The notes under the pieces are model-generated. The model was not told where the DNA came from. It was given only the letters and a program-made list of their open reading frames with translations, and made no database searches. Below, piece after piece: positions 1,341-53,506 of a stretch of DNA of 64,000 nucleotides. Positions within the stretch are counted from its first letter, which is position 1; the number at the start of each line of letters is the position of its first letter. The position numbers and the translations under genes are program-made. The DNA lies in NCBI RefSeq assembly GCF_044324785.1, contig NZ_CP172127.1; one strand, 5' to 3'. The stretch is from Escherichia coli (GTDB taxonomy: Bacteria > Pseudomonadota > Gammaproteobacteria > Enterobacterales > Enterobacteriaceae).

Positions 1341-1368
1341 TCGGTATGTCGCATCCGGCAATCGGTGA

Positions 1369-2268: not shown

Positions 2269-3033
2269 ATGAATAACTCCCCCCGCTACCCGCAGCGCGT
2301 TCGCAATGATCTGCGCTTCCGTGAACTGACTGTGCTACGCGTTGAGCGTATTAGCGCCGGTTTTCAGCGCATTGTCCTTGGCGGCGAGGCGCTGGACGGT
2401 TTTACATCGCGCGGCTTTGACGATCACAGCAAACTCTTCTTTCCTCAATCTGATGCTCACTTTGTGCCGCCAACGGTAACGGAAGAGGGTATCGTCTGGC
2501 CGGAAGGACCACGCCCACCGTCGCGTGACTATACGCCGCTGTATGACGAACTACGCCATGAACTGGCGATTGATTTCTTTATTCACGAAGGTGGCGTCGC
2601 CAGCAGCTGGGCAATGCAGGCGCAACCGGGCGATAAACTCACGGTGGCAGGTCCGCGAGGTTCGCTGGTGGTGCCAGAGGATTACGCGTATCAGCTGTAT
2701 GTCTGCGATGAATCCGGAATGCCCGCACTGCGCCGCCGCCTGGAAACGTTGAGCAAACTTGCCGTTAAACCGCAAGTTAGCGCGCTGGTTAGCGTGCGGG
2801 ATAACGCCTGCCAGGATTATCTCGCGCACCTTGATGGTTTTAATATCGAATGGCTGGCACATGATGAGCAGGCAGTAGATGCGCGTCTGGCGCAGATGCA
2901 AATCCCTGCCGATGATTACTTCATCTGGATAACCGGCGAAGGCAAAGTCGTTAAGAATTTAAGCCGCCGCTTTGAAGCGGAACAGTATGATCCACAGCGG
3001 GTACGTGCAGCGGCTTACTGGCACGCAAAGTAA
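2269..3033 (+). CDS. yqjH: NADPH-dependent ferric-siderophore reductase (siderophore-interacting protein)
   Basis: 254 aa ORF, ATG at 2269; FAD-binding siderophore-interacting family; Fur box and YqjI-type palindromes upstream. Confidence 0.9.
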   Translation: MNNSPRYPQRVRNDLRFRELTVLRVERISAGFQRIVLGGEALDGFTSRGFDDHSKLFFPQSDAHFVPPTVTEEGIVWPEGPRPPSRDYTPLYDELRHELAIDFFIHEGGVASSWAMQAQPGDKLTVAGPRGSLVVPEDYAYQLYVCDESGMPALRRRLETLSKLAVKPQVSALVSVRDNACQDYLAHLDGFNIEWLAHDEQAVDARLAQMQIPADDYFIWITGEGKVVKNLSRRFEAEQYDPQRVRAAAYWHAK

Positions 3034-3039
3034 CTGATA

Positions 3040-3076
3040 TATAAAAAGAAAAAGGCTGACGATTTCTCGTCAGCCT
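3040..3076 (-). terminator. Hairpin aggctgacgatttctcgtcagcct flanked by A/T tracts; terminator for ileX (minus), probably bidirectional for yqjH
   Basis: Inverted repeat GGCTGACGA/TCGTCAGCC; on the minus strand it is followed by a U-rich run. Confidence 0.55.
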
Positions 3077-3086
3077 TTGCTATATC

Positions 3087-3162
3087 TGGTGGCCCCTGCT
3101 GGACTTGAACCAGCGACCAAGCGATTATGAGTCGCCTGCTCTAACCACTGAGCTAAGGGGCC
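3087..3162 (-). tRNA. ileX: tRNA-Ile2 (anticodon CAU, lysidine-modified), with encoded CCA
   Basis: Reverse complement reads GGCCCCTTAGCTCAGTGGTTAGAGCAGGCGACTCATAATCGCTTGGTCGCTGGTTCAAGTCCAGCAGGGGCCACCA: cloverleaf with CAT anticodon and 3' CCA. Confidence 0.92.
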
Positions 3163-3286
3163 ATGGTAGCGGATTATAAAGTAACTCCGTGTCGCAATCC
3201 AGCCATTACCGCGCGCCTGCTGTTTTTATAAACAATGTATTTTCAATCCGTTATACTTTTCCTGGTGATGTTAGAAAGGAGTAAAT

Positions 3287-3793
3287 ATGGTTGAGGATAT
3301 TTTGGCTCCAGGGTTACGGGTCGTGTTTTGCGGTATCAACCCTGGGCTTTCATCCGCCGGGACTGGTTTTCCCTTTGCTCATCCGGCAAATCGCTTCTGG
3401 AAGGTGATATATCAGGCCGGGTTTACCGACCGTCAGTTGAAGCCGGAAGAGGCGCAGCATCTGCTGGATTATCGTTGTGGCGTCACCAAACTGGTAGACC
3501 GTCCAACGGTGCAAGCCAATGAAGTTTCAAAGCAAGAGCTACACGCAGGCGGGCGTAAGCTGATTGAAAAAATTGAAAATTACCAACCACAAGCGTTGGC
3601 GATTCTGGGCAAACAAGCATATGAACAGGGATTCAGCCAGCGCGGTGCACAGTGGGGGAAACAAACGCTCACCATTGGTTCGACGCAGATTTGGGTGCTG
3701 CCAAATCCCAGCGGTTTAAGTCGCGTTTCACTGGAGAAACTGGTTGAAGCGTATCGCGAGCTGGACCAGGCGCTGGTAGTGCGGGGCCTGTGA
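3287..3793 (+). CDS. mug: G/U mismatch-specific DNA glycosylase
   Basis: 168 aa ORF, ATG at 3287; N-terminal motif VFCGINPG typical of Mug/TDG. Confidence 0.92.
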
Positions 3794-3849
3794 AGTGCAG
3801 TGTAACGAAGTTATGAGCGGGCAAAGTACCGCTCCTTACAGATATGGGC

Positions 3850-4413
3850 TTATTCTTCCGCCAAACGGTCTCTGACTACCATAAGCGCAAATCCCAGCAG
3901 ATTTTTCCCCTTCCAGTGAGATGGCACACCGGCATGAGGATGATCTTTTGCAAGGCCAATCCCCCAGAGTTTATCCACCGGGCTGGCTTCAACCAAAATG
4001 CGGGACTGTGTATTTAGCAAGAATGTTTTCAATGCCGAATGTTGGCTAAATTTGTGATAGTTCCCTTCACAGACCAGCTCAAAGCAACTGGCTTGCCAGC
4101 GTTGTTCATCAAAGTTTGTCACCTGCCTCCCCAGCTTTTTGGCTTCTGCCGGGGTCGCCGCCGCCAGAATTCTGGCAAGCGTTTTACTGTCATTAAACAG
4201 CCGCGCTTTTCCTGCCATCATCCAGTGCTCTGCGGTAGCGTAGGTTATACCACCATAGGTAAAAGGCGAACCCTGCCACCACTGACTAAAGCAAGAGGCG
4301 GTAATTTCGTTATTCGAGGCAGGTTGATGGCCCCAGAACCACAGGTATTTCACTTTTTTCCCGGAATCAAGGGCGGAAAGAAGGGCGGGGAGAGAATAGT
4401 ATCCTTGCTGCAT
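3850..4413 (-). CDS. NADAR-domain (YbiA-like, DUF1768) protein; accessory gene between mug and the rpoD terminator
   Basis: 187 aa ORF with features I recognise as the YbiA/NADAR family (e.g. ...WGIGL...); ATG at 4413 immediately downstream of the rpoD terminator. Confidence 0.7.
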   Translation of the reverse strand: MQQGYYSLPALLSALDSGKKVKYLWFWGHQPASNNEITASCFSQWWQGSPFTYGGITYATAEHWMMAGKARLFNDSKTLARILAAATPAEAKKLGRQVTNFDEQRWQASCFELVCEGNYHKFSQHSALKTFLLNTQSRILVEASPVDKLWGIGLAKDHPHAGVPSHWKGKNLLGFALMVVRDRLAEE

Positions 4414-4426
4414 TGCCAGATTTCCT

Positions 4427-4457
4427 TAATAAAAAAGCCCTCACGATGGAGGGCTTA
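4427..4457 (-). terminator. rpoD rho-independent terminator
   Basis: Minus-strand transcript reads aagccctccatcgtgagggcttttttatt: GC-rich hairpin plus U tract directly after the rpoD stop. Confidence 0.75.
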
Positions 4458-4472
4458 TGCATATCTTTACGA

Positions 4473-6314
<1,842 letters not shown>

Positions 6315-6508: not shown

Positions 6509-8254
6509 TCACTTTTTCGCCAGCTCCTGGTTTAATGTCCAGAGCTCCAGGCGTTCTTCGTTGCTTAAACCATGCGTGCGCTCACGAGCGATTAACTCTT
6601 CCTGGCGCAGTTCAAGCAGCGAATCAAACATATGGTTGAGTGAGTCGGTGAAGGTTTGCTCAGCAATATTCTTATCTGCTATATCGTCCCACATCGACAG
6701 TTTTTCAAGGGTGGCAGCATTATTTGTACCACGATAGTGCTCTAAAAGTTGCCCGGTGGTCAGACCTGGCTGGGAGAGACAAGTGTTGACCAGTTCTCTG
6801 AATAAGCCAAGTCCAGGGAGCTTATTTTCATCCAGATTCTCAAGCGGCGGGACCAACGTCGCTAATTCTGGATTTTGCACCAGCAACCCTATAAGTATAC
6901 GCATGGTCGTGCGTTTTAGCTGCGGAACAGGGCGAGAAACGCCGCTCTCTGCCGCTTTTGGGATTAATCGTTCAAGCTGGCTGTCATCAAGTATGCCTAA
7001 TTTGTTGCCTAATTCCTGACGAAGATATATTCGCAGCGTTTCGCCCGGCACTTGCGATATCAATGGCAGTGCCAGCGTACTCAAACGTGCCCGCCCGTCA
7101 GGGGTACTCAGATCAACTTGCGGCATCAGGCTGTTAAACAGAAATGCGGAGAGCGGCATCGCCTGCTCCATCCGCGCTTCAAACGCTTCTTTACCTTCTT
7201 TTCGTACCAGCGTGTCAGGGTCTTCGCCATCAGGCAAAAACATAAAGCGTAGCTGACGACCGTCTGTCATGTAAGGCAGCGCCGTTTCCAGCGCTCGCCA
7301 TGCGGCATCGCGGCCTGCACGGTCGCCGTCATAACAGCAAATGACATTGTTGGTCGCGCGGAACAACAGTTGTATGTGGTCGGCGGTGGTTGACGTACCT
7401 AACGACGCAACGGCGTAATTAATACCGTATTGCGCCAGCGCCACCACGTCCATATAGCCTTCGACCACAAGCAGACGATTGGGTTCAGCGTTATCCTGCT
7501 GCGCTTCATAAAGACCGTAAAGCTGGCGGCCTTTATGGAAAATGTCCGTTTCCGGCGAGTTCAGGTATTTGGGGGTATCGTTGCCCAGCACGCGTCCGCC
7601 AAAACCAATCACCCGACCGCGTTTATCGCGAATGGGGAACATCACCCGCTCGCGGAAACGATCGTAACTGCGTCCCTGATCGTTAGTGACCAACATGCCC
7701 GCATCAATCAATGACTGGCGATTTTCTGGATTGCCGCCAAACCGCTTCAGGACGTTGTCCCAGCCAGGGGGGGCAAAACCAATCGCAAAGCGGGCGATAA
7801 CCTCGTGGCTTAATCCGCGTTTTTCCAGATACTGGCGCGCAGACGTGGCAACAGGTTGCTGTAAAGATTGTTGGTAAAACGTATTCAGACCGTCCATCAA
7901 CTGATAAAGCGTTTGTCGTTGATGGCGCTCGATCTGGCTGGGGCCGCTACCTGCTTCAAATGGCACTTCAAGATTGTGCATTGCTGCCAGCTCTTCGACC
8001 GTTTCGACGAACTCAAGCTTGTCGTAGTTCATCAGGAAGTCGATCGCGTTGCCGTGCGCGCCACATCCAAAGCAGTGGTAAAACTGTTTCTCACCGTTAA
8101 CGGTGAATGATGGGGTTTTCTCGTTGTGGAATGGACAACACGCGTGGAAATTCTTGCCCTGCTTTTTCAGCTTCACACGGGCATCGATCAGATCGACGAT
8201 GTCAGTGCGTGCCAGCAGATCATTAATGAATACGCGTGGGATTCGTCCAGCCAT
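6509..8254 (-). CDS. dnaG: DNA primase
   Basis: 581 aa; zinc-ribbon CHC2 motif (CPFHNEKTPSF...HCFGCG), TOPRIM domain; in the rpsU-dnaG-rpoD operon. Confidence 0.98.
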   Translation of the reverse strand: MAGRIPRVFINDLLARTDIVDLIDARVKLKKQGKNFHACCPFHNEKTPSFTVNGEKQFYHCFGCGAHGNAIDFLMNYDKLEFVETVEELAAMHNLEVPFEAGSGPSQIERHQRQTLYQLMDGLNTFYQQSLQQPVATSARQYLEKRGLSHEVIARFAIGFAPPGWDNVLKRFGGNPENRQSLIDAGMLVTNDQGRSYDRFRERVMFPIRDKRGRVIGFGGRVLGNDTPKYLNSPETDIFHKGRQLYGLYEAQQDNAEPNRLLVVEGYMDVVALAQYGINYAVASLGTSTTADHIQLLFRATNNVICCYDGDRAGRDAAWRALETALPYMTDGRQLRFMFLPDGEDPDTLVRKEGKEAFEARMEQAMPLSAFLFNSLMPQVDLSTPDGRARLSTLALPLISQVPGETLRIYLRQELGNKLGILDDSQLERLIPKAAESGVSRPVPQLKRTTMRILIGLLVQNPELATLVPPLENLDENKLPGLGLFRELVNTCLSQPGLTTGQLLEHYRGTNNAATLEKLSMWDDIADKNIAEQTFTDSLNHMFDSLLELRQEELIARERTHGLSNEERLELWTLNQELAKK

Positions 8255-26257: not shown

Positions 26258-27314
26258 GGCTTTGTTGAATAAATCAGATTTCGGGTAAGTCTCCCCCGTA
26301 GCGGGTTGTGTTTTCAGGCAATACGCACGCTTTCAGGCATACCTGCTTTCGTCATTTTGTTCAGCGCTCGTACCAGGGCCATAGCCTCCGCAACCTGACC
26401 ATCGTAGTCACGCAGCGTCAGTGAACCCCCGAACAGCTGTTTTACCCGGTACATCGCCGTTTCCGCTATCGAGCGACGGTTGTAATCTGTTGTCCATTTC
26501 CACCGCGCATTACTCCCGGTCATTCGCTGATTAGCCACTGCACGGTTACGGTCTGCATATTCACCGGGCCAGTAACCCGCACCTTTTCGGGGAGGGATAA
26601 GCGCGCTGATTTTCTTACGCCGCAGTTCATCGTGACATAGCCGGGTATCGTAAGCGCCATCGGCGGCGGCTGACCTGATTTTCCGGTGGGTTTGCCGGAT
26701 TAACCCGGGGAAGGCCTCTGAGTCCGTAACGTTGTTCAGCGACAGGTCAGCGCAGATGATTTCATGTGTTTTACTGTCAACGGCGAGATGCAGCTTACGC
26801 CAGATACGGCGGCGTTCCTGGCCATGCTTTTTGACTTTCCACTCGCCTTCACCGAAGACCTTCAGCCCGGTGGAATCAATTACCAGGTGTGCGATTTCAC
26901 CCCGGGTGGGCGTTTTGAAACTGACATTAACCGACTTTGCCCGCCTGCTGACACAGCTGTAATCCGGGCAGCGTAGCGGAACGTTCATCAGAGAAAAAAT
27001 GGAATCAATAAAGCCCTGCGCAGCCCGCAGGGTCAGCCTGAATACGCGTTTAATGACCAGCACAGTAGTGATGGCAAGGTCAGAATAGCGCTGAGGTCTG
27101 CCTCGTGAAGAAGGTGTTGCTGACTCATACCAGGCCTGAATAGCTTCATCATCCAGCCAGAAAGTTATGGAGCCACGGTTGATGAGGGCTTTATTGTAGG
27201 TGGGCCAGTTGGTGATTTTGAACTTTTGCTTTGCCACGGAACGGTCTGCGTTGTCGGGAAGATACGTGATCTGATCCTTCAACTCAGCAAAAGTTCGATT
27301 TATTCAACAAAGCC
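26258..27314 (-). mobile_element. IS903-group insertion sequence (IS5 family), 1057 bp with 18-bp terminal inverted repeats GGCTTTGTTGAATAAATC
   Basis: Left IR at 26258-26275, right IR (reverse complement) at 27297-27314; length exactly 1057 bp; single transposase ORF; 9-bp TSD as expected for IS903. Confidence 0.93.
26314..27282 (-). CDS. IS903-type DDE transposase
   Basis: 322-aa ORF (TTG start in track) MKDQITYLPDNADRSVAKQKFKITNWPTYNKALINRGSITFWLDD...; lies within the IS boundaries. Confidence 0.9.
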   Translation of the reverse strand: MKDQITYLPDNADRSVAKQKFKITNWPTYNKALINRGSITFWLDDEAIQAWYESATPSSRGRPQRYSDLAITTVLVIKRVFRLTLRAAQGFIDSIFSLMNVPLRCPDYSCVSRRAKSVNVSFKTPTRGEIAHLVIDSTGLKVFGEGEWKVKKHGQERRRIWRKLHLAVDSKTHEIICADLSLNNVTDSEAFPGLIRQTHRKIRSAAADGAYDTRLCHDELRRKKISALIPPRKGAGYWPGEYADRNRAVANQRMTGSNARWKWTTDYNRRSIAETAMYRVKQLFGGSLTLRDYDGQVAEAMALVRALNKMTKAGMPESVRIA

Positions 27315-28618: not shown

Positions 28619-28624
28619 GTTGCT

Positions 28625-28924
28625 TTATTCTGCTTTATCAATAGGCGGGATAGCCGGAGGAGATTGAAGATCTGCTACCGAATTATTGCGCGCTTCCAGT
28701 TCACTGATGCGCTGCTCTAGTAATGCCAGTTTCTCACGAGTCCGTAACAGGACTTGCGTCTGTACGTCGAATTCTTCGCGGCTCACCAGATCGAGACGCG
28801 TCAGCTGCGCTTGTAGGGTTTGGCGGATTTTTTTCTCCACATCTTCCCCGAACTCCCTGATTCCTTTAGGCATTGATTCGTGAACCTGGCGAGCGATTTG
28901 CTCAATTTTTTTCGGGTCAATCAT
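28625..28924 (-). CDS. ubiK: Ubiquinone biosynthesis accessory factor UbiK (YqiC)
   Basis: Coiled-coil protein [60 protein letters not shown]...; start chosen at the MIDPKK Met, since the track ORF extends further upstream. Confidence 0.85.
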
Positions 28925-38364: not shown

Positions 38365-40260
<1,896 letters not shown>

Positions 40261-40288
40261 TAATCCTCCCGGCAGAAGAATAAAACAT

Positions 40289-40322
40289 AGCCCGGTATAC
40301 AAGTGTATACCGGGCTTTTTTG
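40289..40322. terminator. Hairpin plus T-tract after parE, probably bidirectional with the convergent receptor gene
   Basis: agcccggtatacaagtgtataccgggct followed by TTTTTTT. Confidence 0.7.
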
Positions 40323-40323
40323 A

Positions 40324-42465
40324 TCAAAATTCCATTTTCACCGTGAATTGCACTGCACGCGGATCGCCAATCTGATTCCCCAGATTATTTGTGGCGATGG
40401 AAGAGGTGTAATACGTTTTATCAAACAGGTTTTTGACGTTTAATTGCAGTGTGACCGGATACTGCAATTTCATTTTGTATGCGGCGAAGGCATCGGCAAC
40501 GAAATAGCCAGGCAGATAATAGTCAGCCCCATTGGTTGCCGAACGACGGCTTACGCCATGTCCACCACCGCCAAACGTCAGTGTGTTATTGCCTGGCATG
40601 TTATGAATGTCATAGGTCAGGAATAGCGAACCGGTATGACGAGGAACATTCGGCAATGGTTTCCCTGCATAATCAGGATCTTCCAGAACCTTAGCATCGG
40701 TATAGCCGTAGCTGGCAATGATATTAATGTTTTCAGTTAATGCTCCCGCAAGGTCGACTTCTACCCCTCTTGAACGAACGCGGCCTGCCGTTTTGGCGAT
40801 GGTTTCATCACCAATACTTTCGGTATACAACACGTTACGTTTATGGATATCAAACAGCGCAATATCTGCGGTTATACCATCGAACAGCTCGAATTTTGCC
40901 CCGACTTCGTAAGCATTAGATGATTCCGGTGGAAGATCTCCGATGTAGCTGGCAATTGACGATTGCGGCATAAATGTTTGCGAATAATTAGCAAATAAGG
41001 ATACCGATGGCGTCAGTTTGTAGACTAACCCCAGTTTGGGCGTCCATTGTTCATCGCGGCTGTCAGTATTGACATTAAAAGGACGGCCTTTACCCGCATA
41101 CTGCGTGTAATACTGATAGCGGATCCCGGCGACGGCAATCCAGTTATCGGTCAGATAGAGCGCGTCCTGTGCATACGCTGAGTAGCTCTCCTGTTTGATC
41201 GTCTGATCACTGTCCGACGCCGAAACCGTTGTGCATTTGCTGGTAATACCATAAACGGGGTTGTAGATATTGAAATCTTTAGCTTTTTTACAGCGAATCA
41301 TATCTGTGCGCAGAAGATCATAATATTCATATGACACCCCACCCAGAATCTCATTATAGAATCCGGCAATATCAACATTCCCTTGCAGATCCGCACGAGT
41401 AGCATGCATACGCTGGGTAGATCCTTGGGTTGCATCAACACGCCGTGTCAGCGTTCCTGTCGTTGCATCATATGCGGTAACACGCGCCTGATTATCGCTG
41501 TATTTATCCTGGCTGTAGCTGTAATCAAAGCGCGCTGTCCACTGGCTATTGAGATGATATTCTGCGTTGAGTTGCGCCAGATCGGACTGACCATCTGTAA
41601 TATTAAACGGTTCGTCAAAACGTATTTTTCGATCAACGTTTACGGGCTGTTTCGTCGTAAGGTCGAAAATCGTTCCACGATCGAACGGAGTTTTATAGTC
41701 CCGATGGGAATAGAGCATGGTTACTGTTGCATTATCACCAAACCAGGTGAGTGACGGGGCAATAAATGTACTGCGCTCTTTACCGAAGTTTCGCCAGTAA
41801 TCTTCATCCTGCACTTCCCCGGTAAGGCGATACGCCAGCTGAGTGCCTTCAATGGGACCTGTGATATCAAGTTGCCCAGTGCCGCCACCAAAACTGGAGG
41901 AGGTGGCTGAAACCGAACCATGGAATGTTTTTTCCGGGCGCTTGGTCACGACGTTAATCAGTCCACCAGGATCGAGAATGCCATACAGCGTGGAGGCCGG
42001 ACCTTTTAGCACTTCCACACGTTCTGTGGCGGCGTTGAAACTGCGAGGAAGTACAGTTCGCAGGCCGTTGGTCATGATGGAGCCATCCCGGTTAGCACCA
42101 AACCCACGACGTACAAAGGCGTCCTGAGTTCCGCCTAATGTATTGGTCTGTACCACGTTACTGACGTTATAAAGCGCTTCATCCAGCGTCGTCGCATTCT
42201 GATTTTCCAGAACCTGATCGCTAACCGTATTGACCACCTGCGGGATATCCAGCATCGGCATATCGGTTAATGTCGCCGTGGAAGTGCTCAGAGGTTGATA
42301 ACCATCGGTCGCCTCAGTTGCGGTATTTGCATCCGCTGTAACAGTGATTGTTTCGCCATCTTTGGTCGTTGCAGTGTCGGTTGCATGAATCATTGGTGCT
42401 GCAAAGAGCAGTGAAAAGAGCGCCCGACCTTTGATTCCTGAGAATGAAGGTGTGAACTTAGCCAT
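40324..42465 (-). CDS. TonB-dependent outer-membrane siderophore receptor
   Basis: 713 aa; signal peptide, plug domain, beta-barrel, C-terminal aromatic residue (...FTVKMEF). Confidence 0.88.
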   Translation of the reverse strand: MAKFTPSFSGIKGRALFSLLFAAPMIHATDTATTKDGETITVTADANTATEATDGYQPLSTSTATLTDMPMLDIPQVVNTVSDQVLENQNATTLDEALYNVSNVVQTNTLGGTQDAFVRRGFGANRDGSIMTNGLRTVLPRSFNAATERVEVLKGPASTLYGILDPGGLINVVTKRPEKTFHGSVSATSSSFGGGTGQLDITGPIEGTQLAYRLTGEVQDEDYWRNFGKERSTFIAPSLTWFGDNATVTMLYSHRDYKTPFDRGTIFDLTTKQPVNVDRKIRFDEPFNITDGQSDLAQLNAEYHLNSQWTARFDYSYSQDKYSDNQARVTAYDATTGTLTRRVDATQGSTQRMHATRADLQGNVDIAGFYNEILGGVSYEYYDLLRTDMIRCKKAKDFNIYNPVYGITSKCTTVSASDSDQTIKQESYSAYAQDALYLTDNWIAVAGIRYQYYTQYAGKGRPFNVNTDSRDEQWTPKLGLVYKLTPSVSLFANYSQTFMPQSSIASYIGDLPPESSNAYEVGAKFELFDGITADIALFDIHKRNVLYTESIGDETIAKTAGRVRSRGVEVDLAGALTENINIIASYGYTDAKVLEDPDYAGKPLPNVPRHTGSLFLTYDIHNMPGNNTLTFGGGGHGVSRRSATNGADYYLPGYFVADAFAAYKMKLQYPVTLQLNVKNLFDKTYYTSSIATNNLGNQIGDPRAVQFTVKMEF

Positions 42466-42563
42466 TTAGTCTGTTATCCCAAAAACTCACGGATTGTCGT
42501 GAGTGAAAATTGTTTCTTGTTGCTCACTAAGCACTATCCGTTTGTTATCTCACCATCGGATAT

Positions 42564-42584
42564 GTAATTGAGAATCATTCAATC
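42564..42584. promoter_or_regulatory. Fur-box-like site in the divergent promoter region between the receptor and the ABC operon
   Basis: gtaattgagaatcattcaatc compared with consensus GATAATGATAATCATTATC; embedded in an AT-rich 370-bp intergenic region. Confidence 0.5.
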
Positions 42585-42838
42585 ATGCGGTGATGTAGTA
42601 GTAAATGAGAAATAACAAAAAATTGCTACATGTGTTTTTATGAGAGGTTAATGCAATTCAATTGATTGTAATTTATTAATATTTAATGGTTTTATTTTTA
42701 TCTTTAAAAATATTTCACCTGTTATTTACCTTGTTTTTGTATGGCTTTTAACTTCTTGACTACTACATTTTGTGGCGTCAAACTCTCAAAGGAGAATGAG
42801 TTTTATTTTTGTTTGTCTTTGATTAAGTTGGCGTACAC

Positions 42839-43648
42839 GTGGCACATAACGCAAAAGGGCAGGGGCTGATCCTCGACAATGTTTCTGCCGGGTATCACAC
42901 GAAAATCATTGTTGATGGTGTTTCTTTCTCCGTTCCCACAGAAAAAATGACCGTTCTGGTTGGGGCAAACGGCTGTGGAAAGTCGACGTTGCTCAGCACC
43001 ATTGCACGTATCTTGCAACCTATGGGCGGCTCGATATTGCTGGATGGTAAAGCGATTCACGAGCAACCAACGAAAGCGTTATCCCGTAGACTTGGGATCT
43101 TGCCGCAGTCGCCATTATTGCCGGAGGGATTAACCGTTTATGAACTGGTGTCGCGTGGGCGTTTTCCCTGGCAGAATTTCATTCGTCAATGGAGCGACGC
43201 CGACGAGCAGGCGGTAGAAGAGGCCCTGAAATTAACCGGTACGCAGGAGTTTGCACATTTACCTGTTGAAAAACTTTCTGGTGGGCAGCGCCAGCGTTGC
43301 TGGATTGCGATGGTGTTGGCGCAAAAGACGCCTTATATCCTGCTGGATGAACCCACAACCTGGCTTGATTTACGTTATCAGGTTGAAATTCTTGAGTTAT
43401 TACATGATTTAACGCGTCATCACGGGCGTACAGTCGTCGTGGTGTTGCATGATCTGAATTTTGCCGTCAATTATGGTGATACGTTGATATTTTTACGCCA
43501 GGGGAAAGTGGTGCGTGTGTTGAATGAGGGGGAACATTGCACGCCTGAGCTGGTAAAAGCTGTCTTTGACGTTGATGTTCACGCATCAATAAATCCTCTG
43601 ACGGGAAAGCCGTTCTTCATGCCGTTTCGTGGTGTAGAAAAAGTATGA
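42839..43648 (+). CDS. ABC transporter ATP-binding protein, FepC/FecE-like
   Basis: 269 aa; Walker A GANGCGKST, signature LSGGQRQR, Walker B ILLDEPT; GTG start at 42839 is the most upstream in-frame start. Confidence 0.88.
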   Translation: MAHNAKGQGLILDNVSAGYHTKIIVDGVSFSVPTEKMTVLVGANGCGKSTLLSTIARILQPMGGSILLDGKAIHEQPTKALSRRLGILPQSPLLPEGLTVYELVSRGRFPWQNFIRQWSDADEQAVEEALKLTGTQEFAHLPVEKLSGGQRQRCWIAMVLAQKTPYILLDEPTTWLDLRYQVEILELLHDLTRHHGRTVVVVLHDLNFAVNYGDTLIFLRQGKVVRVLNEGEHCTPELVKAVFDVDVHASINPLTGKPFFMPFRGVEKV

Positions 43649-44628
43649 TGCGCACAGGGCTGGTTACTGTAATTTTCCTCGCCTTACTGCTGGTGGGATG
43701 CGTGGTATATCCAGGGATTGGTGCCCGATTTATTGCACCACAAACGGTGTTGCAGGCATTTCTTCATTTTGATCCGCAAAACTTCGATCACAACGTAATT
43801 GTAAGACTCCGTTTGCCGCGTTTAGCGGCAGCATTGCTTACCGGTGCTTCTCTTGGAGTTGCTGGTGCTTTGTTGCAGGCTGTCATTCGTAACCCATTGG
43901 GGGAGCCACATATTTTAGGCTTAAATGCCGGAGCCGCTCTTGCTGTCGTTGCTGCCAGTGCGCTTGGGCTGGCCTTTCCGGTTGGACGCCCACTGCTGGC
44001 ATCTACGGGCGGCGCGTTATTGTTCCTGTTGATATTGCTGCTTTCCTCCGCAGGGCGTTCAGGGTTAACGCCAATGAAAGTTACTTTATGCGGCGTGGCG
44101 CTATCGGCGTTCGTGTCCTCAATAACGGCTGCAATCCTGATTCTTGACGAACAAACACTGCTGGCGATGCGGACATGGCTAGCAGGTGATTTAGCGGGGC
44201 AGGATTGGGCGACGCTGGGTACGTCCGCCTGGTTTTCTCTGGGGGGGGTTGTGTTAGCCATTTACCTTGCGCCCTCTCTTAACATGTTGGCACTGGGTGA
44301 TCGCATGGCGCAGGGGCTGGGCGTCTCGGTACTCCGCACGCGAACATTCACTCTGCTTGCGATCGCGTTGCTCTGTGGCGCAGCCGTATCGATTGCTGGC
44401 CCCATTGGTTTTGTCGGTCTGCTAGTACCGCAGATTGTCAGGCGTCTGGTATCTGCGGATCTGCGCGTTCTGCTCCCTCTTTCAGCTTGTGTCGGTGCCT
44501 TACTGCTATTACTGGCAGATATTATTGCCCGGACGCTTTTCACGCCCCATGAGCTGGCGACCGGTGTCATGACGGCGTTAGTTGGTGCGCCCGTTTTTGT
44601 CATTATGGCGACGAGGATGTTCAAATGA
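43645..44628 (+). CDS. ABC transporter permease (FecCD family)
   Basis: 327 aa polytopic membrane protein; start overlaps the upstream stop. Confidence 0.85.
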   Translation: MMRTGLVTVIFLALLLVGCVVYPGIGARFIAPQTVLQAFLHFDPQNFDHNVIVRLRLPRLAAALLTGASLGVAGALLQAVIRNPLGEPHILGLNAGAALAVVAASALGLAFPVGRPLLASTGGALLFLLILLLSSAGRSGLTPMKVTLCGVALSAFVSSITAAILILDEQTLLAMRTWLAGDLAGQDWATLGTSAWFSLGGVVLAIYLAPSLNMLALGDRMAQGLGVSVLRTRTFTLLAIALLCGAAVSIAGPIGFVGLLVPQIVRRLVSADLRVLLPLSACVGALLLLLADIIARTLFTPHELATGVMTALVGAPVFVIMATRMFK

Positions 44629-45674
44629 GTCGGATAATGAACGTCGGGCTACGTCCACTACGTGTTGGTAAGTTTTCGACACTGGTACGCCCTAAAAATC
44701 TGGTGTTGCTTGGTGGGCTGTTTCTGTTTGCGGTTGGAATACTGATATTCGGTCTGATGCATGGTTCTTTTTCTGTCCCGGCATCGGAAGTAGGACGAGC
44801 GTTGTTTGCTCCAGAAAACGTAAGCACAGACGCACGTTATATTGTGCAGGATATTCGCTTGCCGAGAGTCATCATGGCATTGCTATGCGGAGCCATGTTA
44901 GGTATGGCGGGGGCCGCGATGCAATCCATTGCGCGTAACGGCCTTGCCGATCCTGGTTTAATCGGCGTCAAAGAAGGATGTAGCGTGGCGGTGCTGTGGC
45001 TGATTTTCCAGTTTCCAATGCTGGGAATGTTCTGGCGTCCAGTGGCTGGTCTTGCTGGTGGCTTGTTGGTGGCTTTAATCGTGATTTTTTGTGCGCGCGA
45101 TATTTCCCGCCCGCGATTTGTTCTGATTGGTATTGGTGTTTCCTGGTTTTTCGCCGCCGGTATCGGTGTATTTATGACCACTGCAGATGTTCGAGATGTA
45201 CAAACTGCATTGATGTGGTTATCGGGAAGCCTGCATGCAGCTAACTGGATGTTAGTCGGTATTTCAGCCTGTTGGATGTTGCCAGCCGCTCTTTTATTGC
45301 TGTTCACCGCCAGGACGGCGGATATCGCTCTGCTTGGTCATCAGGTGGCAACCGGGTTAGGCGTGAATAGTTCTCGCCTGGCGTTGTTACGTGTCGCCGC
45401 ACCCATAATCCTGACAGCCGTCTGCGTTTCGTGTGTTGGTAACATCGGTTTTGTCGGATTGATAGCACCCCATATATCACGTTTTATTCTACGTGGCGGG
45501 CAGACGACATTACTGCTGGGGAGCGCGGTATCGGGGGCGTTGTTAGTCATCCTGGCGGATAGCATTGGTCGTTTGGCTTTTTTGCCTTTGCAACTGCCTG
45601 CCGGAATCATTATTTCATTGATTGGTGGACCATTCTTTTTGCTACTGCTCTGGCAGCGCAGGAACAGTTTTTAA
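44625..45674 (+). CDS. ABC transporter permease (FecCD family), second subunit
   Basis: 349 aa polytopic membrane protein; start overlaps the upstream stop. Confidence 0.85.
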   Translation: MSRIMNVGLRPLRVGKFSTLVRPKNLVLLGGLFLFAVGILIFGLMHGSFSVPASEVGRALFAPENVSTDARYIVQDIRLPRVIMALLCGAMLGMAGAAMQSIARNGLADPGLIGVKEGCSVAVLWLIFQFPMLGMFWRPVAGLAGGLLVALIVIFCARDISRPRFVLIGIGVSWFFAAGIGVFMTTADVRDVQTALMWLSGSLHAANWMLVGISACWMLPAALLLLFTARTADIALLGHQVATGLGVNSSRLALLRVAAPIILTAVCVSCVGNIGFVGLIAPHISRFILRGGQTTLLLGSAVSGALLVILADSIGRLAFLPLQLPAGIIISLIGGPFFLLLLWQRRNSF

Positions 45675-45684
45675 TGGGAGTTAT

Positions 45685-46632
45685 ATGCGTTTATTTTTTT
45701 CTCTGCTGATACTGTTGTCATTCTTTGCCCGCGCGACAGAACCTGTTCAGGTCTTTACTGATGATTTAGGGCGCAAAGTCACTGTTCCTGCTCATCCAAA
45801 GAGAATTGTCTCTTTACACGATCTTGATATCACTATTCCTCTGATTGAGCTCGGTGTACCTCCTGTCGCCAGCCACGGGCGAACCCGGCCTGACGGTAGC
45901 CATTTCATTCGATCAGGCGCGTTATTGACAGGTGTCGACTTTGATAATTCATCGATCGCTTTTATTGGCACCGCTGATATTGATATTGAAGCGATTGTGG
46001 CGGCAAAGCCTGACCTGATCATCACAGAACCGACCCGTAATACGCCCATTGAACAACTGGAAAAAATTGCGCCCACGGTGAGCATTGATCATCTCAAAGG
46101 CGGCGCGCCAGAAATCTACCGCAAGCTGGCAGAACTTACAGGAACGCAGTCGCAGCTGGCGATACTTGAACGCCGCTATCAGGCACAAATCAATGCGCTG
46201 AAGGCGACGCTGGACAGCCAAAAAATAACGGTATCGGTGATTCAGGCAAATCAGGGAAAAATTAATGTGATGCATAGCTATCATTCGCTGGGGCGGGTAT
46301 TACGCGATGCTGGTTTTCGCTTTCCGCCGCTGATTGAGAGCATTCCTGAAGGTGGGCGAATGGATGTGAGCGCAGAGCGTTTACCTGAACTGGATGCCGA
46401 TTTTGTTTTTGCAACCTGGCGCGGTGACACCGGTGGTAAACCTCAGGATGAGCTGGCAGCAATGGAAAAAGTCATGCCGGGATGGTGTCAGTTTCTGACG
46501 GCCTGTCGTTCCGGGCGCTATGTGCTGATTTCTCGTGAAGAGGCGATTTCTAACTCCTTTGCATCTCTGGGGCTGATGGCTGCGCAGATACAATCACAAA
46601 TTGCGGGACGACCTCTACCGGAGGCTAAATGA
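45685..46632 (+). CDS. Periplasmic substrate-binding protein (siderophore/chelate-binding cluster)
   Basis: 315 aa from ATG 45685 (MRLFFSLLILLSFFARA signal peptide) preceded by aatgggag RBS; track ORF extends upstream. Confidence 0.8.
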   Translation: MRLFFSLLILLSFFARATEPVQVFTDDLGRKVTVPAHPKRIVSLHDLDITIPLIELGVPPVASHGRTRPDGSHFIRSGALLTGVDFDNSSIAFIGTADIDIEAIVAAKPDLIITEPTRNTPIEQLEKIAPTVSIDHLKGGAPEIYRKLAELTGTQSQLAILERRYQAQINALKATLDSQKITVSVIQANQGKINVMHSYHSLGRVLRDAGFRFPPLIESIPEGGRMDVSAERLPELDADFVFATWRGDTGGKPQDELAAMEKVMPGWCQFLTACRSGRYVLISREEAISNSFASLGLMAAQIQSQIAGRPLPEAK

Positions 46633-47516
46633 TCCAGAAAGACAAAACGCGGGTTGATATTTATGGTGAGCGTTTTCGCACTCGCGCGAGTCAGTTAACG
46701 CCTGGGTTAAGAACTGTCGCAAGCTACATTAATGAGCATCGTGAAGTGGTACTCGAGCAAACGGCGATGGAAATTGCGGCCACGTTGAACACTTCCGATG
46801 CCACAGTTATCAGGGCTATACAGGCTCTGGGGTTTGCCGGGCTGCGTGATCTGAAACGCACTCTGGAACAGTGGCTTGGTCCAGCCCTTAGTTCCAGCGA
46901 AAAGATGTCTACGACGGTGAGTAACTTGACGAGCGATGTTAACACCGCAATCGACTTTGTTCTTGAAGGGCATTTGTATACTTGTAATGTCCTGTCAGAG
47001 CCTGAAAACCGCCACGCGCTTGCGCAAGCTGTAGCGTTGTTGGTGCAGGCACGGCAAGTCGCTATTTTTGGCATTGGCGCTTCGGGTATCCTGGCGGACT
47101 ATACCGCACGACTATTCAACCGCATAGGTTTGCCTGCCACGGCACTAAACCGTACGGGTATTGGCCTTGCCGAGCAACTGATCGCGCTTCAACGTGGCGA
47201 TGTTCTGATCATGATGGCGCAAAAATCTGCGCACCGGGAAGGGCTGACAACGCTTCGTGAGGCGAGGCGGCTGGGGATCCCTGTTATTTTGCTGACAAAC
47301 GCGCTGGATTCACGTTTTAGCAAAGACGCCAGTATCGTGATTCATGTTCCGCGCGGGGATGAAAAGGGGAAAACGCCACTACATGGTACGGTATTGTTGT
47401 GCCTGGAAATGATTGTTTGGTCGGTGGCTTCCGCGATGCCGCAGCGTGCGGTTAAAACCATTAAGCGAATTAACGATTTCCATCGGGGTTTGAAAACGGG
47501 AAGAAAGAATGGCTAA
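46629..47516 (+). CDS. RpiR/MurR-family transcriptional regulator (N-terminal HTH, C-terminal SIS domain)
   Basis: 295 aa; SIS-type nucleotide/sugar-phosphate-binding fold recognisable (…VAIFGIGASG…); start overlaps the SBP stop. Confidence 0.8.
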   Translation: MIQKDKTRVDIYGERFRTRASQLTPGLRTVASYINEHREVVLEQTAMEIAATLNTSDATVIRAIQALGFAGLRDLKRTLEQWLGPALSSSEKMSTTVSNLTSDVNTAIDFVLEGHLYTCNVLSEPENRHALAQAVALLVQARQVAIFGIGASGILADYTARLFNRIGLPATALNRTGIGLAEQLIALQRGDVLIMMAQKSAHREGLTTLREARRLGIPVILLTNALDSRFSKDASIVIHVPRGDEKGKTPLHGTVLLCLEMIVWSVASAMPQRAVKTIKRINDFHRGLKTGRKNG

Positions 47517-47524
47517 TCTGACCT

Positions 47525-47553
47525 GAGGCCGGTAGCAACACCGGCCTCTTTTC
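47525..47553. terminator. Hairpin plus T-tract between the regulator and ygiN
   Basis: gaggccggtagcaacaccggcctc followed by TTTTC. Confidence 0.65.
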
Positions 47554-47560
47554 AGGAATG

Positions 47561-48580: not shown

Positions 48581-48736
48581 AGCAAAAGTCTGATCTTGCT
48601 CTGATTCACCGATGCGGGATAAATATTTTCTGAAAATGACAATACTGAAATCAACTTCCTATAAGTTCCCACAGGAGAGATGTATTATGTAAATGATAAA
48701 GTAGTTTTTCGGAAAAAATAATCATGGAGAATATAT

Positions 48737-49216
48737 ATGTCAAATATCATATACTTATCAATTAAAGGAAAAACACAAGGTTTGATCTCTGAGGGCTGTG
48801 GTTCGTATGCATCTATTGGTAATAAATATCAAATAAATCATGTGGATGAAATTTTTGTTTTACAGTTCGACCATTCTTTAAGTCGAGAATATAATGTAGT
48901 GCATCATCCCATAAAATTTTACAAGCCAATAGATAAATCCTCTCCTTTATTAAATGCTGCTCTTTCTGAAAATGAAGAGTTATCAGCTGTATTTAATTTT
49001 TATAGAATTAATTCTGGCGGTTGTATTGAAAGGTTTTACACAATTGAATTGCAAGGGGCATATTTATCGAATATTCTGACTTGTTATCCACACTCAATTA
49101 CACATGCGGGTAATCAACCGGAAGAGGTCATTGTTCTTAATTATAAAAATATAACATGGAAGCACCATATCGCGAGTACGGAATCATATAGCTGTTGGGA
49201 AGAAAGGATTTTTTAA
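48737..49216 (+). CDS. hcp: Hcp-family protein (type VI secretion tube protein), orphan copy
   Basis: 159 aa; conserved Hcp blocks: N-terminal Y-x-I-K-G...QGLI-x-GC, FVLQFDH, HHPIKFYKPIDKSSPLLNAAL, VIVLNYKNITWKH; RBS ggag 7 nt upstream; AT-rich context. Confidence 0.85.
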   Translation: MSNIIYLSIKGKTQGLISEGCGSYASIGNKYQINHVDEIFVLQFDHSLSREYNVVHHPIKFYKPIDKSSPLLNAALSENEELSAVFNFYRINSGGCIERFYTIELQGAYLSNILTCYPHSITHAGNQPEEVIVLNYKNITWKHHIASTESYSCWEERIF

Positions 49217-49218
49217 AT

Positions 49219-49926
49219 ATGAAAAGCGATCTCACTATAAAAAATAGATATTGTACAATTCCACAAACGAAGTTCCGTAAATGGGATGAAATGGACGTTT
49301 TACTCTGGAAGTTAGGAAAAAATGATTCGCGTCGCCGTTCAGGAGTATATTATTTAAATGCTTATAAAGATGCATATGTACAATATAATAGGGACAAAAT
49401 AATTAAACATGCATATGCCGCAGGGATTCGTCCAGAGTTATTGGGCGGCGTGGCCTGGATTGAGTCAGGAGGTATGCCTGAAAATTATAAGTTTCAGATA
49501 TATGAAACAAAAAGAATGATCGGATCGTTAGATATGCCTGAAAATAAAACATCATTTGGCTCAATGGGTATACAAATACGAACCGCAGCGATTACTCTAG
49601 GCCTTGACCCTTCAGAATTAACTACCAGAAATCAGTTAGAGTTAGCGACATGCCTGATGGAAGATGATTTTACCTTTAAAATTGCTGCTACTCATTTAAG
49701 AGATCTTGCCCTTTTTGATTATCCCTCTTCGGCAACACTGTATATGACGAATGAGCAGTATATTATGGCTGGTATTAGATATAATCGTGGTGTTGAACGA
49801 GATTTGGGTTTTTTTATTTATTTAATTAATAATTTGCCTGCGCGTGATACAGATGATTATAAATTCATCTCTTATGGTATGAGGTTGTTAGAGATTAGAG
49901 AACATATCAAAAAATTGATTAATTAG
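49219..49926 (+). CDS. Hypothetical protein with lytic-transglycosylase/lysozyme-like motifs; candidate Hcp-associated effector
   Basis: 235 aa from ATG 49219 (RBS ggaagaaagga); motifs WIESGG, SMGIQI and AGIRYNRG with spacing like the ES / GLMQ / AYNxG motifs of family-1 lytic transglycosylases; start 3 nt after the hcp stop. Confidence 0.6.
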   Translation: MKSDLTIKNRYCTIPQTKFRKWDEMDVLLWKLGKNDSRRRSGVYYLNAYKDAYVQYNRDKIIKHAYAAGIRPELLGGVAWIESGGMPENYKFQIYETKRMIGSLDMPENKTSFGSMGIQIRTAAITLGLDPSELTTRNQLELATCLMEDDFTFKIAATHLRDLALFDYPSSATLYMTNEQYIMAGIRYNRGVERDLGFFIYLINNLPARDTDDYKFISYGMRLLEIREHIKKLIN

Positions 49927-49935
49927 TAATCAGAG

Positions 49936-50265
49936 ATGTTAAAAAAACAACTACTATCAATATTTGAAGCACTATTATACATAATGCTTACTTATTGGTT
50001 AATAGATGCTTTTTTTGCTTTCAATAAGTATGACTGGATGCTTGAGTCGGGAGACAATATTTGCAGTATACCTTCCGTTTCAGGCGAAGATCGTATATTG
50101 CAAGCAATGATTGCAGCATTTTTTCTTCTGACGCCACTTATTATTCTTATCTTAAGAAAACTCTTTATGCGGGAAATGTTCGAGTTTTGGCTATATGTAT
50201 TCACGCTCGTTATTTGTTTGGTTTGTGGTTGGTGGCTTTTTTGGGGACGGTTTATATTTTGCTAA
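49936..50265 (+). CDS. Small 3-TM inner-membrane protein; candidate cognate immunity protein (possibly the YgiZ orthologue)
   Basis: 109 aa with three hydrophobic helices; immediately downstream of the putative effector; AT-rich. Confidence 0.55.
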   Translation: MLKKQLLSIFEALLYIMLTYWLIDAFFAFNKYDWMLESGDNICSIPSVSGEDRILQAMIAAFFLLTPLIILILRKLFMREMFEFWLYVFTLVICLVCGWWLFWGRFIFC

Positions 50266-53398: not shown

Positions 53399-53506
53399 TG
53401 GAGAATCTTTACCGGAGTGTGAGCCACATCACTCGCGATAAGTTTGAGCGAACAATGCCACAGGCGTATTGTTGTCGGGCTTATAATTTCTCCGGTAAGG
53501 AATACC

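Follow-up and report, generated by a model that had tools for sequence, protein, structure and literature searches.

A NADAR-family gene between rpoD and mug in Escherichia coli, an ortholog of the published sigma-70-linked stand-alone subtype

Four NADAR subtypes in E. coli were described by Cihlova et al. (2024, Toxins 16:208, PMC11125620), one of which, present in strains such as EPEC O127:H6, is a stand-alone protein whose gene forms part of the conserved sigma-70/primase/S21 operon. Residues 1-187 of the EPEC protein hydrolyzed guanosine-ADPr but not thymidine-ADPr in vitro and gave a partial, weak rescue from DarT1 toxicity, below that conferred by the cognate DarT1-linked NADAR; YbiA also hydrolyzed guanosine-ADPr in vitro and gave no rescue of DarT1 toxicity (PMC11125620). 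The supplement of that study lists WP_001183948.1 as the accession of the EPEC stand-alone NADAR ("Bacterial stand-alone E. coli"), and the E2348/69 annotation has this protein between rpoD and mug. Two later papers from the same group (PMC12945103, PMC11833690) make no mention of the EPEC or rpoD-linked NADAR. A sigma-70-linked NADAR behind rpoD, with removal of ADP-ribose from DNA guanine demonstrated for the EPEC counterpart, was already described in 2024, and the present finding adds little to that description.

The window analyzed here is a stretch of 64,000 nucleotides from E. coli (NZ_CP172127.1), in which the gene order is antiparallel to the K-12 map: aer, nfeR, nfeF, ileX, mug, then rpoD, dnaG, and onward. 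The stop-to-stop spacing between mug and rpoD is 679 bp (3794..4472), and a single supported ORF with an ATG start lies within it, so that the claim made from the letters alone, namely a 187-aa NADAR-domain ORF in a mug-rpoD interval of about 680 bp, proved correct. The features of the locus are the following.

3287..3793, plus strand: mug (G/U mismatch-specific DNA glycosylase), convergent with the NADAR gene (ORF, annotation, alignment)
3788..4469, no strand: segment differing from K-12, 682 bp versus 80 bp (K-12 3214892-3214971), representing the NADAR haplotype and including the last two mug codons (megablast against MG1655, alignment)
3815..3834, no strand: short hairpin (6-bp stem, 8-nt loop) located where the NADAR gene and mug converge, between their stops (sequence)
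3850..4413, minus strand: NADAR-family gene, 187 aa, sigma-70-linked stand-alone subtype, predicted ADP-ribosyl-guanine N-glycohydrolase (ORF, Pfam, TIGR02464, AlphaFold and PDB folds, orthologs, dN/dS)
4423..4427, minus strand: Shine-Dalgarno sequence AAGGA, 9 nt 5' of the NADAR ATG at 4413 (read from the sequence)
4428..4456, minus strand: rpoD intrinsic terminator with stem 4456-4449/4442-4435, loop 4448-4443, and T-tract 4434-4428 (terminator scan, RNA fold)
4473..6314, minus strand: rpoD (sigma-70), same-strand gene upstream of the NADAR gene (ORF, annotation of matching E. coli records)
6509..8254, minus strand: dnaG (ORF)

In the alignment, the C-terminus of Mug reads VVRGL in the window and VVRGR in K-12-type genomes.

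The window protein is equal in length to EPEC WP_001183948.1 and shares 94.7% aa identity with it (10 of 187 residues differ); its identity to the ortholog of SMS-3-5 is likewise 94.7%. The dN/dS ratio of the gene is 0.09 against the SMS-3-5 allele (range 0.09-0.10), and the gene is under strong purifying selection and maintained. By its Pfam and TIGR02464 matches and its dN/dS, 3850..4413 is a genuine gene and not a chance ORF. The GC content of the gene is 50.2% and its GC3 is 52.1%; neither is anomalous against the window mean of 51.4%, and a foreign origin by composition was rejected. The window ORF is an ortholog of the published sigma-70-linked stand-alone NADAR. The preferred explanation as a whole, which combines orthology with guanine de-ADP-ribosylation, a safeguard function, expression by terminator read-through, and an old haplotype, is given a probability of about 0.65. 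The domain, the fold, the conservation of the ADP-ribose-binding and catalytic residues, the orthologous and syntenic relationship to the EPEC protein, the purifying selection, and the distribution of the gene are shown by the data, while the activity of this allele, its expression by read-through, and its physiological role are inferred.

Family, active site, and predicted activity

The Pfam NADAR family PF08719 (DUF1768) matched residues 31-184 of the protein with an E value of 1.7e-53 over model positions 7-162 of 163, and TIGR02464 (riboflavin biosynthesis intermediates N-glycosidase domain) matched with 160.8 bits against a cut-off of 73.7; the latter is a domain-level model, and passing its cut-off does not establish orthology. 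The HMM search suggested in the sequence-only reading thus confirmed the NADAR family. The AlphaFold model of the window protein, built with 29 homologs in the alignment, reached a pLDDT of 94.2 and a pTM of 0.90 and has the alpha-helical core typical of YbiA-like folds. The sole significant PDB folds found by Foldseek were the ADP-ribose-bound NADAR 8BAU (E 5.5e-11, TM 0.75) and YbiA 2B3W (TM 0.70-0.77), and the nearest solved structures by sequence were 8BAU (E 4e-16) followed by E. coli YbiA 2B3W (E 8e-11).

For the NADAR of P. nicotianae, Schuller et al. 2023 gave the residues with a part in ADP-ribose binding or in catalysis, including the conserved catalytic Glu/Lys pair of NADARs, which is E43/K50 in P. 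nicotianae and E88/K95 in E. coli C7 (PMC11543638). By alignment, 8BAU residues E43, K50, R79, W89, E125, D130, and W133 correspond to E62, K69, R96, W106, E142, D147, and W150 of the window protein, respectively, with E62 and K69 as the equivalents of the catalytic pair. All seven are invariant in the 29 homologs, which were drawn from four phyla and comprise Enterobacterales, Bacteroidota, Actinomycetota, and one alphaproteobacterium. E142 lies in the motif LVEASP and aligns to E125 of 8BAU, the glutamate of the last beta-strand, which marks the protein as a Glu-type NADAR of the YbiA subfamily sensu de Souza and Aravind. The 8BAU residue R93, which contacts an ADP-ribose phosphate, is replaced by C110 in the window protein, at a position that is variable in the family.

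These matches bear on the possibility that the protein is a metabolic damage-control N-glycosidase, that is, a second YbiA paralog acting on riboflavin-pathway intermediates of the 5-amino-6-ribosylamino-pyrimidinedione phosphate type, with a position behind rpoD that is unrelated to nucleic-acid ADP-ribosylation. The TIGR02464 score, from which a small-molecule substrate of the window protein is possible, would fit this explanation, as would the name ybiA given to the ortholog in several RefSeq records and the Glu hallmark of the YbiA subfamily at E142. However, identity to K-12 YbiA is just 32%, the sequence is nearer to ADP-ribose-bound 8BAU than to YbiA, and both the EPEC ortholog and YbiA hydrolyze guanosine-ADPr in vitro (PMC11125620). 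Furthermore, no riboflavin gene lies near the window gene, and no conserved rib neighbor was found among 80 loci. A metabolic role of this kind is therefore considered unlikely. Through the EPEC protein, hydrolysis of guanine-ADP-ribose on nucleic acid is the experimentally best supported activity of the ortholog group and would be predicted for the window allele, whereas the riboflavin-intermediate cleavage named in the sequence-only reading is less supported. The family assignment in that reading was right, but the description "YbiA-like" was loose and overstated the relationship, the nearer structure being 8BAU.

The rpoD terminator and expression of the gene

In the terminator scan, the rpoD terminator (4456..4435, minus strand) is an 8-bp stem with a 6-nt loop followed by TTTTTTATT, and the folding energy of the hairpin is -12.5 kcal/mol. 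Only about 15 nt separate the end of the T-tract from the NADAR start codon, in agreement with the earlier observation that the ORF lies on the rpoD strand and starts just past the U-tract of the terminator. The hairpin and T-run are kept in E. coli SMS-3-5, E2348/69, E. fergusonii, Superficieibacter, Citrobacter sp. NCU1, and Intestinirhabdus, where one stem base is altered with pairing retained. In every NADAR-positive genus examined (five genera), the terminator is followed directly by a Shine-Dalgarno sequence and an ATG, with GGAG or AGGA at the equivalent Shine-Dalgarno position in the other genera.

A consensus promoter scan, to which promoters in the 3' end of rpoD may be invisible if they are weak or not of the sigma-70 type, found no sigma-70-like promoter on the minus strand in 3200-4800 and no promoter-like site on that strand within 390 bp, and the gap between the T-tract and the Shine-Dalgarno sequence is too small for a promoter. 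Since no promoter was found and there is no room for one, NADAR transcripts must pass the rpoD hairpin, and partial read-through of the rpoD terminator is a plausible and the simplest model for expression of the gene. This model, which follows from promoter-less spacing, agrees with the co-regulation of the NADAR gene with the rpsU-dnaG-rpoD operon suggested by Cihlova et al. (PMC11125620). The terminator looks strong, having a GC-rich 8-bp stem and a U6 tract, and read-through may therefore be very low. An Rfam scan (E<=1, 3000-4700) returned only tRNA, with the remaining matches far under their gathering scores, and a structured RNA or riboswitch near the terminator was rejected.

Downstream of the gene, the hairpin at 3815-3834 has no T-tract on either strand, was not called by the terminator scan, and is not a canonical terminator. 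The whole stop-to-stop spacer between the NADAR gene and mug folds at -10.6 and -13.8 kcal/mol on the two strands. Because the downstream hairpin has no T-tract, NADAR and mug transcripts may overlap in antisense.

Two forms of the rpoD-mug interval and a proposed role

In K-12 MG1655, 78 bp separate rpoD and mug and the NADAR gene is absent, so that the short K-12 spacer given in the sequence-only reading as about 50 bp was close enough. The K-12-type and NADAR-type intervals have no common sequence; the whole interval is replaced, not interrupted, and on the mug side homology ends two codons short of the stop, on the rpoD side 3 nt past the stop (megablast, alignment). In the K-12-type interval, a REP-like element is accompanied by a terminator that works in both directions, AAACGCCACC-TTTTC-GGTGGCGTTTTTT, and this hairpin recurs in recognizable form in E. 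albertii, C. rodentium, and Salmonella. A common terminator, AAACGCCRCC/GGYGGCGTTT, is found in NADAR-less E. coli, E. albertii, Salmonella, and C. rodentium, and NADAR-positive loci in five genera have a common rpoD terminator of their own, GCCCTCC-N5/6-GAGGGC plus a T-run.

A search for direct and inverted repeats in 3700-4560 identified no target duplication or terminal repeat, and no mobility gene such as an integrase or transposase is present there; insertion by a mobile element was rejected on these grounds. The word "inserted" used for this gene was not supported, in that the polarity of the change is not given by the data, no mobile signature was seen in an interval that is replaced as a whole, and synteny extends to five further enterobacterial species, E. 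fergusonii among them, at Mug-like divergence. Repeats in 3700-4560 occur at chance level only, namely a 14-nt inverted pair with 86% identity, one arm of which falls within rpoD, and a pair of 10 nt close to the ends of the cassette.

Among 5,426 complete E. coli genomes, the NADAR gene was found at the rpoD-mug site in 62 (1.1%) and at no other site, and these 62 loci have 92-93% nt identity to the window. The best match of the window among the same genomes was 98.0% over 19.5 kb versus 97.5% for K-12, and the window is, judged by these values, from a divergent E. coli. The exact window NADAR and Mug proteins, which bear the label E. coli, occur on 296 contigs each. The rpoD-NADAR-mug layout is also present in E. 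fergusonii and, with 74-79% aa identity, in Superficieibacter, Citrobacter sp. NCU1, Intestinirhabdus alba, and, seen on the mug side only, Citrobacter sp. R56. The species list obtained from the contig search is incomplete, as it missed the NADAR-positive E. fergusonii. In E. albertii, Salmonella enterica, and C. rodentium, NADAR is absent from the rpoD-mug interval. Chitinophaga and Streptomyces commonly carry remoter homologs, with 55-63% identity. The comparison of this interval across the Enterobacteriaceae, proposed beforehand as a check, thus places the gene in five genera and not in the three NADAR-less species named above, and what might have spoken against the initial claim was not observed: the gene is rare in E. 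coli, K-12 has none, and the protein scores as NADAR.

Between genera, NADAR identity (73-80%) roughly tracks Mug identity (74-85%). The window NADAR gene is 96.5% identical in nt and 97.3% in aa to that of E. fergusonii versus 93.6% and 94.7% to that of SMS-3-5, while for the window mug the order is reversed, with 83.6% nt identity to E. fergusonii and 97.2% to SMS-3-5. In addition, dS between the window and SMS-3-5 is 0.25 in NADAR versus 0.11 in mug and nfeF. By these measures, the NADAR alleles of E. coli and E. fergusonii are incongruent with their flanks, which is read here as a sign of allele exchange within Escherichia via homologous recombination through the conserved flanks. As part of the preferred explanation, K-12-type and NADAR-type intervals would probably be two old, mutually exclusive rpoD-mug haplotypes, the latter not being a recent mobile-element insertion.

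The surroundings of NADAR genes were compared at 80 loci by six-frame ORF prediction, all-against-all BLASTP, and clustering, and no family within 1.5 kb of NADAR was common to two phylum-level groups; conserved partner genes were rejected as a candidate on this result. The high-GC Streptomyces loci gave many spurious ORFs, and within-phylum synteny was left out of the interpretation. The lack of a cross-phylum neighbor agrees with the "stand-alone" label. It also bears on the proposal that the protein is an anti-phage component or an antitoxin, paired with an ADP-ribosyltransferase in the manner of DarT1-NADAR, YarT-YbiA, DS32, or the PADLOC candidate PDC-M42. For such a role speak a PADLOC match to PDC-M42C (E 3.5e-39), phage homologs (phrog_1017, E 1.9e-44), a weak match to the DS32_2 NADAR family anti-phage protein NF053876, and the partial neutralization of DarT1 by the EPEC ortholog (PMC11125620). 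However, no partner gene is adjacent, rpoD and mug flank the gene in every NADAR-positive genus, and no neighbor is conserved across phyla, while the NF053876 match reached 33.1 bits against a cut-off of 240. Furthermore, the protein has neither the Asp replacement that defines DarT1-linked (BC4488) NADARs nor their long basic extension, and the subtype is classed as stand-alone in published work (PMC11125620). A partnered defense function is accordingly regarded as quite unlikely, and a phage-defense role of sigma-70-linked NADAR, as raised in the sequence-only reading, is speculation.

The distribution and the upstream hairpin would also suit a dispensable hitch-hiker that a strong terminator leaves silent or poorly expressed, that persists only through its linkage to rpoD, and that is being lost, as in roughly 99% of E. 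coli. Its rarity (62 of 5,426 E. coli genomes), its absence from E. albertii, Salmonella, and C. rodentium, the canonical terminator directly upstream, and the lack of a proper terminator downstream are all compatible with such a fate. The strong purifying selection (dN/dS 0.09) argues against it, as do the intact ORF, whose residues for ADP-ribose binding and catalysis do not vary in any of the genera, the preservation of the terminator, Shine-Dalgarno, and ATG architecture across five genera, and the occurrence of the exact protein on 296 contigs, which together leave this explanation very improbable.

According to the preferred explanation, a possible role for the gene can be outlined as follows. 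The single-domain N-glycohydrolase would bind ADP-ribose and, acting on ADP-ribosylated guanine of DNA and probably also of RNA, cleave the ribose-N2 bond to restore the unmodified base. With no cognate toxin alongside, the enzyme would most likely be a low-level, constitutive safeguard or repair enzyme, which may counter ADP-ribosyltransferases that target guanine, whether these come from phages, from competitors, or from other systems of the cell itself; Cihlova et al. likewise raised the protection of cells from exogenous ARTs (PMC11125620). The gene would most likely be expressed at an attenuated level as the fourth member of the rpsU-dnaG-rpoD operon, when transcription partly reads through the terminator. 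A further-reaching and rather doubtful proposal is that the rpoD terminator is a conserved attenuator by which a small amount of NADAR is made in step with expression of the operon, for continuous guanine de-ADP-ribosylation of DNA or RNA, and that the haplotypes represent an old trans-species polymorphism of the Enterobacteriaceae, which could be kept by fluctuating exposure to guanine-targeting ART toxins or phages and moved by recombination through the conserved rpoD flank. The two haplotypes with their own conserved terminators form a defined system in which it can be asked whether nucleic-acid ADP-ribosylation pressure shapes the polymorphism. The residual interest of the locus lies in the physiological role of the gene, in the two-haplotype polymorphism, and in why a minority of enterobacterial lineages link an enzyme that de-ADP-ribosylates guanine to the sigma-70/primase/S21 operon.

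Comparison with known systems

The NADAR domain of the window protein is homologous to component C of the PADLOC candidate system PDC-M42 and to phage NADARs such as phrog_1017 and T4 gp30.3. No A or B partner of PDC-M42 lies beside the window gene, the neighbors of which are rpoD and mug only, and the gene is chromosomal in a core-gene context. The cited papers give His as the hallmark residue of phage NADARs.

The DarT1-associated NADAR antitoxin (DarG1, BC4488 subfamily) of E. coli C7 and G. lovleyi belongs to the same NADAR superfamily, has equivalents of the catalytic Glu and Lys, and reverses guanine ADP-ribosylation, an activity predicted likewise for the window protein. The gene of this antitoxin adjoins DarT1, and the protein, of about 230 aa, carries a basic N-terminal extension that binds DNA, whereas the window protein, with 187 aa, has neither the neighbor nor the extension. 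In addition, the antitoxin has a catalytic Asp (D171 in C7; PMC11543638) where the window protein has the YbiA-type Glu, E142.

K-12 YbiA (2B3W) and the window protein share the NADAR/YbiA fold, the Glu hallmark, and a TIGR02464 match. Their 32% identity extends over 148 aa, and YbiA, with 160 aa, is without the N-terminal extension of about 30 residues seen in the window protein. The ybiA locus (b0798) has rhlE, dinG, and ybiB as neighbors, whereas the window gene lies at rpoD-mug. On these grounds, the window protein is regarded as a distant paralog of YbiA and not as "YbiA" itself.

The NADAR of P. nicotianae var. parasitica, represented by 8BAU (Schuller et al. 2023, PMC11543638), is likewise stand-alone and not DarT-linked, shares the seven residues described above, and hydrolyzes guanine-ADPr, the activity predicted for the window protein. 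It differs in being eukaryotic, with about 30% identity, in having R93 where the window protein has Cys110, and in the make-up of its N-terminal extension.

The closest described system is that of EPEC O127:H6 (E2348/69), in which the locus has the same order of rpoD, terminator, NADAR gene, and convergent mug, together with the same terminator hairpin, a protein of 187 aa with a single NADAR domain, and no partner gene. The two loci differ at the level of the allele, as the window allele is nearer to that of E. fergusonii (96.5% nt identity) than to those of EPEC or SMS-3-5 (93.6% nt identity).

Segments of the K-12 map absent from the window

Relative to K-12 (MG1655), the fimbrial operon ygiL-yqiGHI is absent from the window together with its IS2 (K-12 3185070-3191708), and its place is taken by approximately 72 bp at window 28622-28693. 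The toxin-antitoxin locus mqsR-mqsA (K-12 3167819-3168747, approximately 930 bp) is likewise absent at window 53401-53405, and 128 bp of K-12 sequence is gone from the aer-nfeR intergenic region at window 1360-1362.

Additional and replaced segments

The yqiK of the window carries approximately 1,057 bp more than that of K-12, at window 26258-27314, which includes the following feature:

26314..27282, minus strand, IS5-family transposase ORF (NF033579, E 6e-107)

At this segment the K-12 coordinates overlap by 9 bp, which suggests a 9-bp target duplication, and yqiK looks to have been disrupted by an IS903-group insertion. Between parE and ygiN lies a 7.3-kb block not found in K-12 (window 40257-47560), the genes of which encode a 713-aa TonB-dependent siderophore receptor, an ABC ATPase, two permeases, a substrate-binding protein, and an RpiR-family regulator; taken together, these genes resemble an accessory system for iron/siderophore uptake. 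At window 48669-49957, the K-12 ygiZ region has given way to other sequence, which includes the following gene:

48737..49216, orphan type VI secretion Hcp/TssD gene (TIGR03344, E 4.5e-59)

The 243-aa ORF downstream of this gene gave no match in an NCBIfam search, and the two may constitute an Hcp-effector pair.

mug and its flanks

The tRNA gene beside mug was called as follows:

3087-3162, minus strand, tRNA ileX (ARAGORN call: Met (CAT))

This gene matches ileX as annotated in K-12, namely the lysidine-modified tRNA-Ile(CAU). In the locus of a genome with the same NADAR allele (L086), mug is followed by a CbtA/CbeA island that replaces nfeF. In EPEC strain E2348/69, the annotation marks the mug adjoining the characterised NADAR (L003 1494-2000) as a pseudogene containing an internal stop. 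The mug of E. fergusonii (L089 2501-3007) shows only 83.6% nucleotide identity to that of the window (3287-3793), whereas NADAR and rpoD, at 96.5% and 96.4%, respectively, are both far above the adjoining mug. The mug/NADAR junction appears to be the site of the recombination boundary.
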